Shown here piece after piece: positions 2,777 through 14,713 of a DNA stretch of 64,000 nucleotides (positions are counted from its first letter, which is position 1; the number at the start of each line of letters is the position of its first letter). Source of the DNA: an archaeon (GTDB lineage: Archaea; Nanobdellota; Nanobdellia; SCGC-AAA011-G17; GW2011-AR17); contig JAZDPJ010000002.1 of the NCBI GenBank assembly GCA_043797705.1, positions 20,833-84,832 of the forward strand. The letters are read 5' to 3'. The position numbers were made by a program, and so were the translations under genes. The notes beneath the pieces were generated by a model. The model worked only from the letters and a program-made list of their open reading frames with translations, made no database searches and was not told the DNA's origin.

Positions 2777-3118
2777 ATGCAAAAAGTCAAAACCGTAAGC
2801 ATCCTTGCAAAAGAATCTCGTGAAACATGTTCTGCTTTCCCATCAAGATTAGATACAAGAACATGCCTAAAATTTACAAAACAAAACCAAAAATGCAAAA
2901 TTGATTTCAAAATAGCCTCAACAAGAGATATTGCAACAATCAAAATCAATGAATGTCTAAACATCGACAAACCTTACGAAGAATATTATAACCCCATTTT
3001 CAAAATACCTGCAACTGTAGTAGAACTAGGTCTAATTCTAAATACCAGGCCCAACAACACAGTAAAAAGATTAAATGAAGCTATGATATCCCGCCCAATG
3101 CTATACAGAACTTCCTAA
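2777..3118 (+). CDS. Hypothetical protein (weak call)
   Basis: 113-aa ORF in the gap between the tRNA and the RuBisCO gene. No recognisable motifs, and the top-strand composition bias alone favours long ORFs here. Confidence 0.2.
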   Translation: MQKVKTVSILAKESRETCSAFPSRLDTRTCLKFTKQNQKCKIDFKIASTRDIATIKINECLNIDKPYEEYYNPIFKIPATVVELGLILNTRPNNTVKRLNEAMISRPMLYRTS

Positions 3119-4386
3119 GCAGTTCCCCATTCCTTAATAGCCTTAGCCAATTCAGGATGAGTAGCAGCATACTCCCTTATAGGAACATTTCTAAGACAAG
3201 CATCCAAAGCCTGCCTAACAGCCTTAGCACCAGCTCTCGTACCATCTGGATGCGCATGAATACCGCCACCAAAATTAGCAAGAATATCCTTACCCATCCT
3301 CTTTACAAGCTCAGGAAGAACACCAGGCTGCAAACCACCTGAAGCAGTAGCAAGAACCGGCTTCAAACCATACCATTTCTGCTTTAAAACATGAGACAAC
3401 CCATCAGGCTGAACAACATCCTTTTGGATAACATTCTGTACAGCAGTAACTTCTTCCTCAGAGCCACCCATCTTACCAAGATCAACAGTACCAATATGCA
3501 AGGTATCAACACCAATCATCCTAGCAATCTTAGCCAAGAACAACATTGAAATACCGTGCTTCTCATTCCTTGTCAAAGCTCCATGCATAGCGCGATGCGC
3601 ATGAATAGGCAATGAAGAATTTCTCCTAACAGTCTGCAACGCAGACCACCCAGAAGTCAATATATCAACCATAATATAATTTCCACCCTTATCCTGAACA
3701 TATCTCAACCTCTTAATCATCTCAGAAGTCTCAGCAGTGATATTAGGCATGTAAGCCTTACGCTCACCAGTCTCAAGTTCAGCCCTGTCCTTTAATCTTA
3801 GAGTCAGATCAATACGCTCCTTAAATTTATTAAAATTCATTGAAGTAAGATTCTCATCATCCTTAACACAATCAATACCCCCCATCCAAGCCCCATAAGC
3901 AACCTGTGCATGCTGCTTAGCAGTAAGCCCCAACTTAGGCTTAACGATTGTTCCAACTAATGGCCTACTAGGAATATGAAGCAGCTTCCTTACACCTTTA
4001 ACACCAAGCCTTGGACCGTGAAATGAGGTTACTATCTTCTTGGGAAAAGTAACATCCTGCAATCTTAAATTCCTTATTGCCTTCATACCAAACACATTAC
4101 CAGCAATGCTAGAAAGAATCTGAGGTATGTTTCCAGCCTCAAACAAATCATAATGGTAAGCAATCCTCACCGCATTAGTCTTTGAGTTAATATAGAACAC
4201 ATGAGGCATTAGCTTCTGCCTTATTGTCTCATTCAAAGTATGTATGTCTGACCAAGTATCTATAGAGCTTTCGCCAGCCAAATGATTAGCTGCTTTCTGC
4301 AAAGGAATGCGATTCGGCTCCACATAATACTCACAAACAAGGTCGTTTTTCTGTGGTTCGTAGCTAAAATCAATATAATCTTTCAT
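3115..4386 (-). CDS. rbcL: Ribulose-1,5-bisphosphate carboxylase, large-subunit type III (archaeal form III RuBisCO)
   Basis: 423 aa. The carbamylated-lysine motif GGIDCVKDDENL matches GGxDxxKDDE, and the overall layout matches archaeal form III RuBisCO. Gene symbol is by family. Confidence 0.85.
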   Translation of the reverse strand: MKDYIDFSYEPQKNDLVCEYYVEPNRIPLQKAANHLAGESSIDTWSDIHTLNETIRQKLMPHVFYINSKTNAVRIAYHYDLFEAGNIPQILSSIAGNVFGMKAIRNLRLQDVTFPKKIVTSFHGPRLGVKGVRKLLHIPSRPLVGTIVKPKLGLTAKQHAQVAYGAWMGGIDCVKDDENLTSMNFNKFKERIDLTLRLKDRAELETGERKAYMPNITAETSEMIKRLRYVQDKGGNYIMVDILTSGWSALQTVRRNSSLPIHAHRAMHGALTRNEKHGISMLFLAKIARMIGVDTLHIGTVDLGKMGGSEEEVTAVQNVIQKDVVQPDGLSHVLKQKWYGLKPVLATASGGLQPGVLPELVKRMGKDILANFGGGIHAHPDGTRAGAKAVRQALDACLRNVPIREYAATHPELAKAIKEWGTA

Positions 4387-4492
4387 TATAGTTTTTCTAA
4401 TAAAAACAACTATTTAAAGAATAGGTATAAACTCCCCAGTAGTAACAGAATAGAAAGGTTTAAATACCTGCTAATGGTGTAAAAATCAAGGG

Positions 4493-4864
4493 TTGGAAAC
4501 CAAAATGAACAAAATACTAACAAGCATAATACTAGGATCAACATTACTAACAGGATGTGCAAGCAACTACTTCCTAAAAAGCTATTATATAAATGTTGGT
4601 GGAACAGAAATAACCTACCAAACAGGAACAGTACCAAACACGGGCAGAGAACTATGCATGGCAACCGAAGACAAAGAAAATTCTTATCAAAAACTAATAG
4701 ACTACCAATGTGACGAAACCGTCGAAACCTACAAAACAAGAAGACAGGACAAGACATTAAAAACAGTAAACAAAAACAAAAACAATGCAAACTGGTTTGA
4801 AACAACAATAAATACTCAATTCAAAGAACTCAAAAAAAAGGTGATAAAACAGTTGGAGGACTAA
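4493..4864 (+). CDS. Small lipoprotein (signal peptide plus lipobox LLTGC)
   Basis: N-terminus MNKILTSIILGSTLLTGCASN. Codon style matches the local plus-strand genes. Confidence 0.45.
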   Translation: METKMNKILTSIILGSTLLTGCASNYFLKSYYINVGGTEITYQTGTVPNTGRELCMATEDKENSYQKLIDYQCDETVETYKTRRQDKTLKTVNKNKNNANWFETTINTQFKELKKKVIKQLED

Positions 4865-4869
4865 AAAAA

Positions 4870-5064
4870 ATGCGAAGAAACCCACTATTATTCACCCCAG
4901 AGGAATTCAGTTTCCTACACAGCACCTTCCTGAAAGAAGGCGACGAGACAAAAGTGTTCAAGAAAATAAAATCCAAAAAAGGATACGATCTTGACAAAAG
5001 AGAGATAGACCTGATAAAAAGACGATTCCAAAAATGGAAAGGCGATAATACAGGAATGTTCTGA
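4870..5064 (+). CDS. Hypothetical small basic protein
   Basis: 64-aa ORF with local codon style and no motif. Confidence 0.3.
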   Translation: MRRNPLLFTPEEFSFLHSTFLKEGDETKVFKKIKSKKGYDLDKREIDLIKRRFQKWKGDNTGMF

Positions 5065-5069
5065 TAGAT

Positions 5070-5711
5070 TTAACCCAATAACCCATGCAGTTCAGCGACT
5101 GACTTCAGAATATAATCAGGCTTCTCCTTCTTTAGTTTCGCACGCGAATGATTACCAGTCAGAACAGCAATAACCTTTAACCCCGCACCCTTACCAGCCC
5201 GAATATCATAAACAGTATCCCCCACCATGTAACCATTCTTAATCTTAGTCTTTTTCATAGCAAGCTTCAAAGCATCAGAAGCAGGCTTAGGATGCTTAAC
5301 CTCATCATTACCAATCAGAAACCTAAAAGTAGACTTCTCAATACCAGCAGCCCTCAAAGTAGCAACCATCTCCTTATGCTTAGTATTAGAAATCAAAACC
5401 AAAGCATATTTTTTCTTAAGAAGTTTTAAAGTATGCTTAGCACCGCGAATCACACGCACATACTGAACAGTATCACCAACAACAAAACGATCATGATCAA
5501 CAACAACCTTCTCCACCTGCTTATCAGACAACTCAGGAAAAATATCCCTAACCAAAACCCTACCAACAAGACCAAACAAAGAAATAATCCTCTTAGAAGA
5601 AACTTTCGGCAAACCATTCTTCCTGAAAGCCTTATGAAACGCAGCAACATGCACACGATCAGAATAAACCAAAGTATTATCCAAATCCAAACAAATCAAC
5701 TCTTTTTTCAC
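5070..5711 (-). CDS. HAD-superfamily hydrolase (phosphatase, phosphoglycolate-phosphatase-like)
   Basis: N-terminal motif I LICLDLDNTLV matches DxDxT. Size and layout fit a HAD hydrolase. Confidence 0.7.
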   Translation of the reverse strand: MKKELICLDLDNTLVYSDRVHVAAFHKAFRKNGLPKVSSKRIISLFGLVGRVLVRDIFPELSDKQVEKVVVDHDRFVVGDTVQYVRVIRGAKHTLKLLKKKYALVLISNTKHKEMVATLRAAGIEKSTFRFLIGNDEVKHPKPASDALKLAMKKTKIKNGYMVGDTVYDIRAGKGAGLKVIAVLTGNHSRAKLKKEKPDYILKSVAELHGLLG

Positions 5712-10091: not shown

Positions 10092-10787
10092 TCAAACATT
10101 CCGAACATCACACTTCTGCACAAACTGCCCGGCAAAATGAGCAAACCCCCGAAGCCGCTGCTCAGAAAAAGGCTCAACTGTTTCGTACTTTGAATCAACA
10201 AGCTTAACCTTAGGATTGAACTGCTGAATAAAATACTTCTTGGCACCAACAATCTCCTTGCAAATATGCTGCAACCTCTCCATATCAAACAAACCAGGAA
10301 CAGCAGTAGTGCGGAACTCATAATCAACATCACTCTTCAACAAAATATCAATAGACCTAAGAATATTCTTAGTATCAACATCAGCATTAACAACCTCAGG
10401 ATAACTATCAAAAGAAGACTTAATATCCATAGCGACATAATCAACAAGCTTGCGATCAATAAGATTACCCAACATCCCAGGATTAGAACCATTAGTATCA
10501 AGCTTAACCTTCAAACCCAAAGACTTCAACTCAGCAAGAAACTCAGGAAGATCACCATGAATAGTAGGCTCACCGCCACTAACACAAACACCATCAATAA
10601 ACTTCCTATGCTCCTTCAAATCCTCAAGAACCCTTGGAATCTGAATCCAATCAGAATCACCATTACCAACCAAACCAGGATTATGGCAAAAAGGACAACT
10701 AAAATTACAACCACCAACAAAAACAGTGGAAACTATATTACCTGGATAATCAACAAGCGAAGTCTTCTGAAAACCTTTTATTATCAT
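10092..10787 (-). CDS. nrdG: Anaerobic ribonucleotide reductase activating protein (radical SAM)
   Basis: CNFSCPFCHNP matches the CxxxCxxC radical SAM motif. Lies immediately downstream of nrdD. Confidence 0.8.
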   Translation of the reverse strand: MIIKGFQKTSLVDYPGNIVSTVFVGGCNFSCPFCHNPGLVGNGDSDWIQIPRVLEDLKEHRKFIDGVCVSGGEPTIHGDLPEFLAELKSLGLKVKLDTNGSNPGMLGNLIDRKLVDYVAMDIKSSFDSYPEVVNADVDTKNILRSIDILLKSDVDYEFRTTAVPGLFDMERLQHICKEIVGAKKYFIQQFNPKVKLVDSKYETVEPFSEQRLRGFAHFAGQFVQKCDVRNV

Positions 10788-10789
10788 CT

Positions 10790-11017
10790 TCAGTACTGCC
10801 TCAGAGAAGGAGACACACGCTTAACCTTATCCTTATCGCTCTTCATACTGACCTCAGTATCATAAGCCTTCCTCTGCTTAAACTCCTCGTACTTGCCCTT
10901 GTTCCAGAACTGCACAGGCCTATGGTACCCCACAACCCTGCTATAAACCTCACATGGAACAACTCTCTCGCCAGTTCTCGCCTCAACCTCTTCCTTAACA
11001 TTTTCTATTTCATACAT
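10790..11017 (-). CDS. nrdD: NrdD C-terminal glycyl-radical segment encoded in a +1 frame relative to nrdD
   Basis: EVYSRVVGYHRPVQFWNKGK is the RxxGY glycyl-radical motif of class III RNR. Its ATG overlaps the nrdD stop (GTA TGA A). Confidence 0.6.
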   Translation of the reverse strand: MYEIENVKEEVEARTGERVVPCEVYSRVVGYHRPVQFWNKGKYEEFKQRKAYDTEVSMKSDKDKVKRVSPSLRQY

Positions 11018-14000
11018 TCATATCACCCTTTATATCTCTCACAATACCATACATCTTAAGCTGCTCCTCTGTATGCTCATGAGGACACTCAAAATGTTCA
11101 CCCTTCACATAACCATGAACTGGACAGATACTGAAAGTAGGAGTCAAAGTGAAATAAGGCAGCTTGAAATTAGTAGCAATCTTCCTAACAAGTGCCTTGC
11201 ATGTCTGAATATCATCAATGCGCTCGCCAAGGAAGCCATGCAATACAGTACCACCAGTATACTTTGACTGAATCTCATCCTGCAGCTGCAACGCCTCAAA
11301 AATGTCATCAGTATAATTCACCGGAAGATGAGTCGAGTTCGTATAATAAGGCTCACCTTCGCCAGCAGTGATGATATCCTGGAACTTGCTCTTGTCAGCC
11401 TTCGCAAGACGATAAGTCGCACCCTCAGCAGGCGTGGCTTCCAAGTTATAGTTATTGCCTGTCTTCTTCTGATAATCAGCAATACGCTCAAGCATCGCAC
11501 CCATCACCCTAAGAGCAAACTTACGACCCTCCTCACTAGCGATACTCTTGCCGAACAGGTTCAAACAAGCTTCATTCATGCCAAGAATCCCGATGGTGTT
11601 AAAATGATTGGACCAATAACTACCTGAAGACTGCTTGACACCAGACAAGTAATGCTTAGCATAAGGATAAAGCCCAAATTCAGTGAACTTCTCAACAGAC
11701 TTCCTCTTAATCTCAAGGCTCAAACTAGCGAGATCCATAAGCCTGAACAACCTCTGCATGAACTCATCCTCATTCTCAGAAAGATAACCTATACGAGGAA
11801 GATTCAAAGTAACTACCCCGAGACTACCTGTCAGAGGATGCGCCCCAAAGACACCGCCCTTACGCCTGATCTCACGGTTGTCCAAACGAAGCCTGCAGCA
11901 CATCGACCTCGCATCATCAGGATCCATATCAGAATTCACAAAATTAGCGAAATAAGGCATGCCATACCGAGCAGTCATCTCCCAAATAATATCATACTCT
12001 GGATTATCCCAATCCAAATCCTTAGTCACATTATACGTGGGAATAGGAAAAGTGAAAATCCTCCCATTAGCATCTCCCGCCATCATCACCTCTGCGAATG
12101 CCCTGTTAATCATCTCCATCTCCTTCTGGAACTCGCCATACTTCTCAGGATTAGGCTTGCCTCCAATGATAACAGGCTTGTCAGCCAACGCCTTAGGACA
12201 CTTAAGATCCAAAGTAATATTTGAAAAAGGACACTGAAAACCTACTCGCGTAGGAACATTCATGTTGAACAGGAATTCCTGCATGGCTTGCTTGACTTCC
12301 TTGTAGGACAGATTGTCATAGCGAACGAATGGTGCGAGGAAAGTATCAAACCCTGAGAACGCCTGCGCCCCGGCACAATTACCACACCAACAAGCCTTTC
12401 CGTTCCTCCTAACATACAATGTATGATTAGGCACCTCCAAGCAATAGACATTCCCCGAATACCTTACTTTCTTAATATTAGACTTCGACAGCCTGAAGTA
12501 TTTAGTCCTTGAAACCCCGATGTCGTACCATCTAAATTTGCCTTTCTTCCTTTCATAGATATTAGCATTCCATCCCAGCTTCAAAACTACCTCCTGAAAA
12601 TCATCTGCCAACCTCCTGCTTTTCGTAGAATATTCCACATTTCCATTTGCAATATACCCGTCACCATTCATCATCCAATCAAATAAAATCTTTAATTGCC
12701 TAGAGGACAATGATTTAACATCATTAGGCAAAAACTTGTCTCCAGCCTTGCCAAACTTCTCCAGATAAGAAAACAATTGCTTATCACAGATAACAAATTC
12801 CAGTTTCTTGCTGTCCACAATCTTTTTATTGTAATTAAATGGCAATTTACTAAGAATGTTTTCAAAAGAATCAGCCACCTTACCCTTATTCTGGGTTATC
12901 CTAACCGCATACTCATAGAAAACCTTTTTTCTCCCTTCTCGTTTTCTTTCCCGCTTATACAAACAGCCTTCTGCTATCCAAAAGCCAAAAAAAGCTAACC
13001 AAACATCCATCGGTATCTTTTTAGGCCCTACTCTCTTTAGAACATACTTATCTCCAAAATGTTGATACTGCCTTATCTCAATGCCTGGCAGAACAAAATT
13101 GGCCTTATCCTTGGTTTTCCAGATAGAAACTTTTGGAATCCAGTTAGTATTAGGGTTAAACTCATTTGCCTTAACAAATTTTGTCGAATTATCTTTCTTG
13201 GCATGAAAATACTGCCAAACCAGCATACTATGCTCTGGAGTCACAAGAAGATCAAGTTTTTTTGTCCTAAAATTATACAGCTCCTGAGACCTTTTATATT
13301 TAAAAAATCTTAAGGGCTTATGCAAGCTTATAACCCCCCTATTGTTCCTAGTGAAGACTTTATCCACCTTCTTCACATCATAAAAATATTTCCAGCCCTC
13401 CTCAGTAAGGACTTCTGTGTCCTCTGAATAGCATTCCCCCTGCAAAGTATAAACAAAATTAGTCACCTGCCCCAAAGCAGCACGCAAGTGCTTCGGCGGA
13501 GCACTCTGAAGCTTGCCCGATACTCCCCCGAATCCCCGGATAAGAAGGTCCTGCAAGTCCCACCCACAGCAATAACTCGCAAGAATCTGCAAATCATGCA
13601 AATGGAAATCACCCTCAACATGCGCATCCCTAATCTCAGGAGGATACACCTTATGAAGCCAATAGTTCGAACTCACTATAGAAGAGATATGATTGTTCAG
13701 CCCCTGAAGAGAATAAGCCATGTTGCTGTTCTCCTTCACACGCCAATCAGTCTCACGCAAATAACCATCCATTATATCATTAGAGTTCACAAAAGACCTG
13801 AACTCCCTCAAACGCTTATGCTGCTCACGATAGATTATGAAAGCCTTAGCAGTCTTGGCATGACCCTCCTCAATAAGTATCTTCTCCACCGCATCCTGAA
13901 CATCCTCAACATTAGGCACAACCTTATCAGAGAAACCCTTGTTCTCCAGATAAGCAACAATCTTCCTTGTCAGCTCCTTCGCCTTGTCATAATCCCTTCC

Positions 14001-14114
14001 GCCAACAGACTTCGCAGCACGGAAGATAGCATCGCAAATCTTCTGAGGATTGAACAAAACAACCTCCTTGTTACGCTTCTTAACCTGAGATATTTCCGTA
14101 GATACCATAATCAC
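11010..14114 (-). CDS. nrdD: Anaerobic ribonucleoside-triphosphate reductase (class III) with N-terminal ATP-cone and one intein
   Basis: ATP-cone at the N-terminus, SMCCRLRLD thiyl-radical region, and a C-terminal zinc-ribbon half. 1034 aa, of which about 352 aa is an intein. GTG start. Confidence 0.85.
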   Translation of the reverse strand: MIMVSTEISQVKKRNKEVVLFNPQKICDAIFRAAKSVGGRDYDKAKELTRKIVAYLENKGFSDKVVPNVEDVQDAVEKILIEEGHAKTAKAFIIYREQHKRLREFRSFVNSNDIMDGYLRETDWRVKENSNMAYSLQGLNNHISSIVSSNYWLHKVYPPEIRDAHVEGDFHLHDLQILASYCCGWDLQDLLIRGFGGVSGKLQSAPPKHLRAALGQVTNFVYTLQGECYSEDTEVLTEEGWKYFYDVKKVDKVFTRNNRGVISLHKPLRFFKYKRSQELYNFRTKKLDLLVTPEHSMLVWQYFHAKKDNSTKFVKANEFNPNTNWIPKVSIWKTKDKANFVLPGIEIRQYQHFGDKYVLKRVGPKKIPMDVWLAFFGFWIAEGCLYKRERKREGRKKVFYEYAVRITQNKGKVADSFENILSKLPFNYNKKIVDSKKLEFVICDKQLFSYLEKFGKAGDKFLPNDVKSLSSRQLKILFDWMMNGDGYIANGNVEYSTKSRRLADDFQEVVLKLGWNANIYERKKGKFRWYDIGVSRTKYFRLSKSNIKKVRYSGNVYCLEVPNHTLYVRRNGKACWCGNCAGAQAFSGFDTFLAPFVRYDNLSYKEVKQAMQEFLFNMNVPTRVGFQCPFSNITLDLKCPKALADKPVIIGGKPNPEKYGEFQKEMEMINRAFAEVMMAGDANGRIFTFPIPTYNVTKDLDWDNPEYDIIWEMTARYGMPYFANFVNSDMDPDDARSMCCRLRLDNREIRRKGGVFGAHPLTGSLGVVTLNLPRIGYLSENEDEFMQRLFRLMDLASLSLEIKRKSVEKFTEFGLYPYAKHYLSGVKQSSGSYWSNHFNTIGILGMNEACLNLFGKSIASEEGRKFALRVMGAMLERIADYQKKTGNNYNLEATPAEGATYRLAKADKSKFQDIITAGEGEPYYTNSTHLPVNYTDDIFEALQLQDEIQSKYTGGTVLHGFLGERIDDIQTCKALVRKIATNFKLPYFTLTPTFSICPVHGYVKGEHFECPHEHTEEQLKMYGIVRDIKGDMNV
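12378..13433 (-). mobile_element. Intein with LAGLIDADG homing endonuclease domain inside nrdD (residues ~228-579)
   Basis: Block A CYSEDTEVLTEEG and block B LVTPEHSMLV. Two LAGLIDADG-type motifs (LAFFGFWIAEGC, LKILFDWMMNGDGY). C-terminal ...NGKACWCGN followed by Cys. More AT-rich than the flanking extein. The C-terminal boundary is approximate. Confidence 0.65.
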
Positions 14115-14169: not shown

Positions 14170-14616
14170 CTATTTCTTCAACAACTGCTTTACCTCATCC
14201 TGAAAAGAGGTTATGTCCGCAAATTCCCGATACACTGATGCGAAACGAATGTAAGCCACCTTATCAAGCCTCATCAGATGCTTCATGACCAGCTCGCCGA
14301 CAACCGCGCTCGGAACCTCATTTGACTTATAGTTCCTCAGCTTGGACTCAATCAGGCTTATCGTCTCCCCAATCTTCTCATCAGATATGCCCCTCTTCTC
14401 GCAAGCCCTAAACATGCCCTTCCTTATCTTCTCAGAATCGAAAATCTCCTTGGCACCGTTCTTCTTAACCACAAAAAGATTCAGAAGCTCAACCCGCTCA
14501 TATGTAGTGAACCTCTTCTCGCAGCCATTGCATTCCCTACGCCTGCGCGTCATCCCATTAGCATCCCGCTTATCCGTGACCTTTGTCTCTGATTTTTGGC
14601 AGAATGGACATATCAT
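14170..14616 (-). CDS. nrdR: NrdR-family transcriptional repressor (zinc ribbon plus ATP-cone)
   Basis: MICPFCQ...ECNGCEKRFTTYERVE zinc ribbon followed by an ATP-cone (VVKKNGAKEIFDSEKI...). Directly upstream of nrdD. Confidence 0.8.
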   Translation of the reverse strand: MICPFCQKSETKVTDKRDANGMTRRRRECNGCEKRFTTYERVELLNLFVVKKNGAKEIFDSEKIRKGMFRACEKRGISDEKIGETISLIESKLRNYKSNEVPSAVVGELVMKHLMRLDKVAYIRFASVYREFADITSFQDEVKQLLKK

Positions 14617-14713
14617 CTTGAATACAACCTCTTGTAGCTAACCACTTACGATTATACAAGATGTTGTGCTTTATATACATTTATATATTTCAAAATAGAA
14701 TTCAAAAAACACA

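Follow-up and report, generated by a model that had tools for sequence, protein, structure and literature searches.

An anaerobic (class III) ribonucleotide reductase (RNR) that is very probably a genuine two-gene enzyme, made as two polypeptides from one operon, is encoded in a 64,000-nucleotide (nt) stretch of archaeal DNA, here called the window (NCBI GenBank assembly GCA_043797705.1, contig JAZDPJ010000002.1, positions 20,833 to 84,832, forward strand). The operon lies on the minus strand, as do all of its features given below, and has the order nrdR, nrdD (large subunit), a small open reading frame (ORF) and nrdG. The catalytic chain NrdD is divided between a large subunit of 1034 amino acids (aa) counted from a GTG start (11010..14114; ORF list, Pfam NRDD and ATP-cone) and a small subunit of 75 aa (10790..11017), which is the glycyl-radical tail of NrdD standing alone. 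Each of the two ORFs has its own start signals, and the arrangement is conserved. The original prediction offered three readings of the small ORF, namely a separate small subunit translated from its own ATG, a prfB-type programmed +1 frameshift and a base missing in the assembly; only the first of them survives.

Two Complementary Pieces of NrdD

The two ORFs match adjoining parts of the same protein families. In the Pfam family NRDD (PF13597), whose profile has 562 positions, the large ORF covers positions 100-532 (residues 578-1018; 596 bits) and the small ORF positions 533-562 (residues 22-52; E = 3.7e-9). NCBIfam NF006126 is divided in the same way, the large ORF taking positions 217-651 and the small ORF 650-683. 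The large ORF reaches 1001 bits against NF006126 (cutoff 548) and 497 bits against TIGR02487 (cutoff 326). Chance would not produce two ORFs that are exactly complementary pieces of a single family profile, and the division of both profiles between them confirms the earlier assignment of the glycyl-radical tail to a separate 75-aa ORF. The NCBIfam matches are all NrdD models, none of them dedicated to the small protein, and among solved structures only distant NrdDs were matched (4COI/4U3E, 8P23, 1H78), none of which is split.

The large subunit consists of an ATP-cone, a catalytic barrel with the cysteines of ASYCCGW and SMCCRLR, and a C-x2-H...C-P-H-E-H metal-site motif. All the residues that are invariant in an alignment of 62 homologues are kept, including these two cysteine motifs (present as ASYCCGWDL and SMCCRLRLD), and C180, C385 and C386, in intein-free numbering, are invariant in that alignment. 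The chain terminates in ...HTEEQLKMYGIVRDIKGDMNV without a glycyl-radical tail. The RVxGY motif, expected on the barrel polypeptide of a class III RNR, is located instead on the separate 75-aa ORF.

The small ORF opens with MYEIENVKEEVEARTGERVVPCEVYSRVVGYHRPVQFWNKGK... (MYEIENVKEEVEARTGERVVPCEVYSRVVGYHRPVQFWNKGKYEEFKQRK...). Its RVVGY motif (residues 27-31; 10925..10939), delimited in an alignment of stand-alone tails, is aligned with RIVGY, the corresponding motif in the radical tail of Thermotoga maritima NrdD (PDB 4COI), and the predicted radical site is Gly30 (codon 10928-10930). Fifteen positions do not vary among the 18 stand-alone tails aligned (C22, E23, S26, R27, V29, G30, Y31, P34, W38, N39, G41, K42, E45, F46 and R49), while the flanks vary freely. 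The activase gene nrdG (231 aa; 10092..10787; Pfam Radical_SAM and Fer4_12) begins with an ATG 2 nt past the small-ORF stop. Its CX3CX2C cluster motif reads CNFSCPFC, so that a radical S-adenosylmethionine (SAM) activase is adjacent to the two pieces.

AlphaFold2 was used to model a single chain in which the small ORF directly follows the intein-free large subunit. The model is of good confidence overall, with a predicted local distance difference test (pLDDT) score of 83.3 and a predicted template modeling (pTM) score of 0.78. It contains one stretch of low confidence, residues 673-695, which straddles the break at 680/681. In the model this stretch fits a split in a flexible linker.

The Junction and Its Start Signals

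Read in the frame of nrdD, the junction is GGT GAT ATG AAT GTA TGA. The large ORF ends ...IKGDMNV-TGA with its stop codon at 11010-11012, and both the ORF list and the sequence bear out the ...GDMNV-TGA terminus originally read there. The window sequence around 11005-11020 is GATATGAATGTATGAAATAG. The small ORF starts as gatatgaATGtatgaaatag, with an ATG at 11015-11017 that is formed by aAT-G, and this ATG and the nrdD TGA enclose an 8-nt start/stop overlap, ATGTATGA (11010..11017). In the small-ORF frame a TGA stands immediately 5′ of the ATG, and no alternative start codon occurs ahead of the CEVYSR motif. The coordinates given in the original prediction are correct, but the start marked in the string quoted there, gatATGaatgtATGAaatag, is misplaced: the capitals there denote the in-frame nrdD Met codon and an out-of-frame ATGA (ATG AAA TAG), and the true ATG is the one at 11015-11017.

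A Shine-Dalgarno sequence, GGGTGAT, lies within the nrdD 3′ end (11022..11028), with its GGTGA at -10 to -6 relative to the small-ORF ATG. This register is identical to that of GGAGGTGA in the homologous loci L003, L007 and L016. In L003-L009, which come from at least four samples, the gene order is nrdR, nrdD, small ORF, nrdG, ferredoxin and GTPase, and the 8-nt overlap is kept. The junctions of the closest relatives read AAAGGAGGTGAAAAAAATGTCTGAG and AAAGGAGGTGACAAGAATGTCTGAA, and that of the window reads AAAGGGTGATATGAATGTATGAA. What L003-L009 and L016 conserve with the window is the Shine-Dalgarno sequence (GGAGGTGA or GGGTGAT, with GGTGA at -10 to -6) together with the ATG. In L016, a Woesearchaeota metagenome-assembled genome (MAG), both remain in register and the TGA stop of nrdD has moved 18 nt further downstream, giving a 26-nt overlap.

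Other relatives depart from the frame found in the window. The most similar small ORF (P0003 in L096, 70% identity) follows a junction GAGGTGATG-TAA-AA-ATG and lies in frame +2, so that a +1 slip cannot fuse its two ORFs. In L098 a TAG is directly followed by the ATG, in frame 0. The comparison of junctions among relatives thus gives two separately conserved ORFs with their own ribosome binding site and ATG, in all three frames and with variable spacing, which is the outcome that the original prediction had tied to a genuine split. In assemblies from NCBI and ENA the gene calls list the identical 75-aa protein as a gene of its own. With the small ORF as query, 38 proteins were recovered, all of them short (41-128 aa) and many on long contigs.

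Distribution of the Split

The window locus is one ordinary member of a large family. When GTDB species representatives were scanned with the C-terminal 260 residues of the large subunit, 80 loci were found at 58-66% identity, of which about 60 hold continuous NrdDs and about 16 are split. The split occurs in isolates, namely Thermodesulfatator indicus DSM 15286, T. autotrophicus S606, Thermodesulfobacterium hydrogeniphilum DSM 14290 and Brevinematales NS, the last of these being a complete genome. It is also present in other Thermodesulfobacteriota and in MAGs of Anaerolineae, Patescibacteria and Bdellovibrionales. The small proteins of isolates have separate RefSeq/GenBank entries (T. indicus Thein_0123 / WP_013906755.1, 58 aa; T. 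autotrophicus WP_157627886.1; Brevinematales QJR21019.1), where they are named "hypothetical protein" or "anaerobic ribonucleoside-triphosphate reductase".

Twenty split loci were tabulated. Relative to nrdD, the small ORF is in frame +1 in 8 of them, +2 in 5 and 0 in 7, and the spacing extends from a 26-nt overlap to a 466-nt gap. Every one of the 20 small ORFs has a start codon of its own (19 ATG, one GTG), and in most of the loci a Shine-Dalgarno-like motif is found a few nt 5′ of it. The pieces are separated by two unrelated ORFs in L012-L014, whose surroundings are virus-like and include thyX, dUTPase and nrdG.

The part of the window NrdD that follows the intein was compared with homologous clusters formed at 90% identity, and of the 120 best of these, 48 have no tail. 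The tail-less clusters share a C-terminal signature, CP(Y/H)xH(T/S)xE(E/Q/D)L..(Y/F)G, which replaces the usual CPxC and takes the form CPHEHTEEQLKMYGIVRDIKGDMNV in the window. In some fused members, P0194 (CPYDHAEEELKSVAHRNGRVLCEVYSRIVGY) among them, this signature is likewise present and leads into a linker of about 13 residues, and they place the fission inside this subfamily-specific linker, between the metal site and the glycine loop. In a rough neighbor-joining tree of large-subunit C-termini, the split forms fall in a few clades and are not scattered; L007 stands on a long branch, probably because of intein sequence inside the aligned segment.

A hidden Markov model (HMM) built from tail-only ORFs has 5079 matches at E <= 1e-3 among 1.84 billion representative proteins; in the top 150, 149 have a length of 192 aa or less. 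The 146 newly returned tail sequences begin with M (141) or V (5) and carry diverse N-terminal extensions. They are complete small genes and not contig-edge fragments. A different situation is met in L093 (Aenigmarchaeota ex4484_52, NJDR01000004.1, 1324-3756), where NrdD ends tail-less as ...CPVCIKEEKNECRWSK* and no tail ORF is found in the 3 kb downstream. A convergent thiolase-like gene is located downstream of this NrdD, which may be a broken copy or may have its tail encoded elsewhere.

Alternative Explanations

A programmed +1 ribosomal frameshift at GUA-UGA-A would fuse the two ORFs to a full-length NrdD, as occurs in prfB (RF2). The small ORF is indeed in frame with nrdD after a +1 shift, and the fusion peptide ...DMNV-EIENV..., originally derived from a slip at GTA-T-GAA, is correct on the sequence. 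The likeness to prfB includes the UGA stop, the +1 continuation and an upstream Shine-Dalgarno-like sequence; the UGA and the +1 relation are common to the window, L003 and L007, and L016 is also +1 with a TGA, located 18 nt downstream. However, the P-site tRNA cannot re-pair, since GUA in the window or GUC in L003 and L007 would have to move to UAU or UCU, and the slippery codon of prfB is therefore missing. In prfB the Shine-Dalgarno sequence stands about 3 nt upstream of the shift codon, whereas GGTGA here ends 5 nt ahead of the ATG and at least 7 nt ahead of GTA, which is the spacing of initiation. The frameshift is also contradicted by the relatives, in which the frames vary: the stop is displaced in L016 while the Shine-Dalgarno sequence and ATG stay, L096 (frame +2) would need a shift in a different direction, stop-codon readthrough would be needed in L098, L017, L036, L057 and L065, and gaps of 107-466 nt separate the pieces in L012, L025, L037 and L052. 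A frameshift-dependent ORF would need no in-frame ATG as its first codon, and that of the small ORF is strictly conserved; in addition, there is no significant RNA structure at the nrdD/small-ORF junction (z = -0.83). Frameshifting as the origin of a full-length NrdD is accordingly very improbable. Reassignment of UGA was also considered and rejected: readthrough in frame 0 gives V-X-N-R-K-C-stop, and the tail is not reached. The explanation by a sequencing or assembly error, in which a missing base would have broken a gene that is really continuous, may appeal because the sequence is MAG-derived and a single-base indel restores one frame. A chain restored in this way would exceed the profile by about 37 residues at the step from position 532 to 533. 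The junction is the same in the window, in the NCBI MAG GCA_043811045.1 and in an independent ENA MEGAHIT contig, the latter two having 1-2 positions different from the window over 6.7-12 kb. These three concordant assemblies, the lack of a homopolymer at the window junction and the recurrence of the same split in dozens of lineages, including finished isolate genomes, rule out a sequencing error, the split being heritable and confined to particular clades. The likelihood left to a missing base is negligible.

It is no more credible than the frameshift that nrdD is a decaying pseudogene and its tail ORF a functionless remnant. The tail-less NrdD of L093, which lacks a tail ORF within 3 kb, suggests that broken copies may exist. 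In the window, however, every family-invariant residue is kept in the large subunit, the 15 invariant positions of the tail persist across the 18 divergent stand-alone homologues while the flanks are free, and the compact operon has an intact nrdG. The architecture is moreover conserved in bacteria, archaea and viruses, with own start signals for each tail ORF. The pieces might also be joined post-translationally by protein trans-splicing through a split intein, given that nrdD already hosts one intein and that Cys22 of the small ORF directly precedes the conserved EVYSR, like an extein +1 residue. The C-terminal extension of the large subunit (about 20 residues) and the N-terminal extensions of the small ORFs (6-21 residues) are too short for intein halves; in L003 the latter is only MSEKVIP. 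No HN motif is found in the small-ORF N-terminal extension, and neither end has a Pfam intein domain. Trans-splicing is thus scarcely conceivable, with as small a chance as that of a missing base.

Some points weigh against the two-gene reading or limit it. Of the 55 window ORFs that reach 120 aa, only about 7 are preceded within 25 nt by a Shine-Dalgarno match of 5 nt or longer, and most genes of this genome appear, from their upstream sequences, to initiate without a Shine-Dalgarno sequence or leaderless; the motif at the junction is thus weaker evidence here than in the bacterial relatives. The clade of the window, L003, L007 and L016 is always in frame +1 with an overlap, and within this clade alone a low level of +1 fusion could still take place. 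The AlphaFold2 model is no test of docking, because fused homologues in the alignment drove it, and the assembly and activation of the two pieces are inferred. The split is seen at the scale of the locus, which is compatible with a second complete nrdD that these genomes may carry elsewhere.

Proposed Mode of Action

In the two-gene enzyme, the small subunit would be translated from its own ATG by means of the Shine-Dalgarno sequence embedded in the end of nrdD, probably with translational coupling across the 8-nt overlap. NrdG would then abstract a hydrogen from Gly30, leaving a glycyl radical on the small subunit. This subunit would be inserted non-covalently into the barrel of the large subunit, where it would generate a thiyl radical on the finger-loop cysteine. 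The arrangement would be analogous to that of GrcA/YfiD with oxygen-cleaved pyruvate formate-lyase (PFL), but constitutive. Oxygen damage cleaves the chain of a glycyl radical enzyme at the radical glycine, and a plausible benefit of the split is that such cleavage would destroy only a cheap, replaceable piece of 75 aa.

Comparison with Known Systems

The single-chain NrdDs that work with NrdG (T4, E. coli and Thermotoga maritima; PDB 1H7A, 4COI, 8P23) belong to the same Pfam and NCBIfam families as the split enzyme. They share with it the catalytic cysteines, the metal site ahead of the tail, the RVxGY radical glycine and the adjacent radical-SAM activase. The differences are that the tail of the window enzyme is a separate, independently initiated polypeptide of 75 aa, and that the motif of the fourth metal ligand is changed from CPxC to CP(H/Y)xH, followed by a conserved TEE(E/Q)L..YG extension.

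GrcA/YfiD and its phage T4 homologue Y06I, the autonomous glycyl radical cofactors of PFL, are likewise small proteins that stand alone and comprise little more than a glycyl-radical segment. The homology of GrcA is to the PFL C-terminus (PF01228, IPR011140), whereas the small ORF of the window matches only NRDD (PF13597). GrcA, in addition, coexists with full-length PFL and acts only after oxygen cleavage; the large subunit of the window never has a tail, which makes the small protein an obligate subunit. GrcA/YfiD demonstrates that a glycyl-radical domain need not be attached to its enzyme to be activated, and that in detached form it can complement an enzyme of this type that has been truncated (PMC8683613); the activation is carried out by the cognate activase, and the large subunit complemented is the one without the radical tail (PMC8683613, PMC13450708).

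Split RNRs with non-covalent reassembly are known in the other two classes, as NrdJa/NrdJb (class II) and Aeromonas phage Aeh1 NrdA-a/NrdA-b (class I) (PMC4520616, PMC2988022, PMC3653736). The split class II enzyme NrdJa/NrdJb of P. aeruginosa has been biochemically characterised (PMC4520616). In both systems adjacent ORFs jointly cover the catalytic subunit, as in the window. They differ from it in class and in split point, and in neither of them is the radical-storing element separated from the barrel. The split of Aeh1 NrdA was moreover made by a homing endonuclease, and none is present at the window break. Split phage nrdD genes have been reported as genes interrupted by introns, inteins or endonucleases (PMC3653736, PMC2988022).

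According to a 2026 review, spare-part proteins are known solely for formate lyases, and it has been speculated that spare parts for other glycyl radical enzymes may exist (PMC8683613). A full-text search of the literature, with subscription-only papers outside its scope, yielded no description of a detached glycyl-radical subunit of class III RNR. The split NrdD is thus present in databases and, as far as the literature is searchable, undescribed.

Other Features of the Locus

The first gene of the cluster is nrdR (148 aa; 14170..14616; Pfam Zn_ribbon_NrdR and ATP-cone), a repressor of bacterial type, with Zn-ribbon and ATP-cone, placed directly upstream of nrdD in an archaeal MAG. Two candidate NrdR boxes were read from the sequence upstream of it, ACAACATCTTGT (14656-14667) and ACAAGAGGTTGT (14624-14635). 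They are ACAA-N4-TTGT palindromes whose centres are 32 bp apart (region 14624..14667), and we take the pair to resemble tandem NrdR boxes in consensus and spacing. For nrdD itself, gene callers prefer an ATG at 14108, which gives 1032 aa.

The large subunit is interrupted by a LAGLIDADG intein of 352 aa (C228 to N579, then C580; 12378..13433; Pfam LAGLIDADG_3 and TIGR01445 intein_Nterm), inserted after TLQGE. Its boundaries were taken from the translations and from intein-free homologues, which read TLQGE(T/A)AGA. On this basis the large subunit would be about 680 aa long after splicing. The nrdD genes of relatives hold zero, one or several inteins, and that of L007 holds at least two.

The C-terminal extension of the small ORF (10790-10870), AYDTEVSMKSDK...SLRQY, resembles the C-terminus of P0193, a fused NrdD ending AYDTNVSLASKH...LLYY, which is the closest homologue of the large subunit (74% identity). 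A VSL.S pattern and a terminal aromatic residue are found in several other stand-alone tails as well. Elsewhere in the window there is a homologue of the RuBisCO large subunit (3115-4386, minus strand, 423 aa; PF00016 and PF02788), with genes for ZPR1, IF-2B and diphthamide synthase nearby; the combination agrees with a DPANN-like archaeon whose RuBisCO is of the nucleotide-salvage type.

Stand-Alone Tails outside Split Operons

Glycyl-radical tails of the NrdD type also occur apart from split operons. L015 (JGI 3300045917 Ga0496409_0003274, 151-2616) encodes a complete NrdD of 701 aa with its own tail and, after 51 nt, an ORF of 102 aa (P0036) in which zinc ribbon and tail are present a second time. 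Over 102 nt the tail segments of the two ORFs share 98% identity. The duplicate could derive from a recent duplication, from gene conversion or from an assembly repeat. As an extra tail beside a complete NrdD, the feature of a GrcA-like back-up, it is a better spare-part candidate than the window locus.

In L099 (Logan SRR8369165_2504, 3593-5252), P0035, also of 102 aa and made of a zinc ribbon and an NrdD-type glycyl-radical tail, is located between a Fur/PerR-like regulator and rubrerythrin and desulfoferrodoxin genes, and no nrdD is found within 4 kb. The oxidative-stress context suggests a GrcA-like role for P0035, as a possible spare part where NrdD has been damaged by oxygen.

Orphan NrdD tails of 119-144 aa with a CxxC...CxxC zinc ribbon were found in L010 (5001-5360), L100 (10001-10369) and L101 (KP703175.1, 5914-6348). 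The first two are virus-like contigs and the third is the ANME-1 archaeal virus ANMV-1; in all of them the tail lies among tiny ORFs, with no nrdD within 5-10 kb. The ANMV-1 tail ORF is annotated "anaerobic ribonucleoside triphosphate reductase". These orphan viral tails have a parallel in Y06I, the T4 homologue of GrcA.

Significance

In glycyl radical enzymes the radical is thought to reside on the C-terminal domain of the catalytic chain, and to our knowledge the sole exception is GrcA/YfiD of PFL. A radical glycine on a separate peptide of 40-75 aa bears on how the activase gains access to the glycine loop, as its substrate could be the free peptide. It also bears on whether the spare-part repair of oxygen damage exists outside formate lyases. 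Since the split occurs in the cultured Thermodesulfatator indicus and Thermodesulfobacterium hydrogeniphilum, the system is testable.

The split has consequences for annotation, too. The small ORFs are called "hypothetical" by annotation pipelines or are given the name of the full-length enzyme, and phylogenomic surveys of RNR may take the tail-less large subunits for fragments or for non-functional proteins. It is the split-NrdD family, taken together, that holds real interest for glycyl-radical enzymology.

More tentatively, and with somewhat less than an even chance of being right, the small glycyl-radical proteins of NrdD type that stand apart from the barrel may serve anaerobic RNR as replaceable radical cartridges, a class that would be both widespread and undescribed. 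If so, the cartridge of the split operons would be an obligate radical subunit, and after exposure to oxygen only a peptide of 40-75 aa would have to be remade and re-activated by NrdG. The extra copies, for which L015 and L099 are candidates, would be true spare parts for a complete NrdD, and viruses including ANMV-1 would carry orphan copies to sustain the synthesis of deoxyribonucleoside triphosphates in their hosts. The repair principle of GrcA/YfiD would then be extended from formate lyases to class III RNR.

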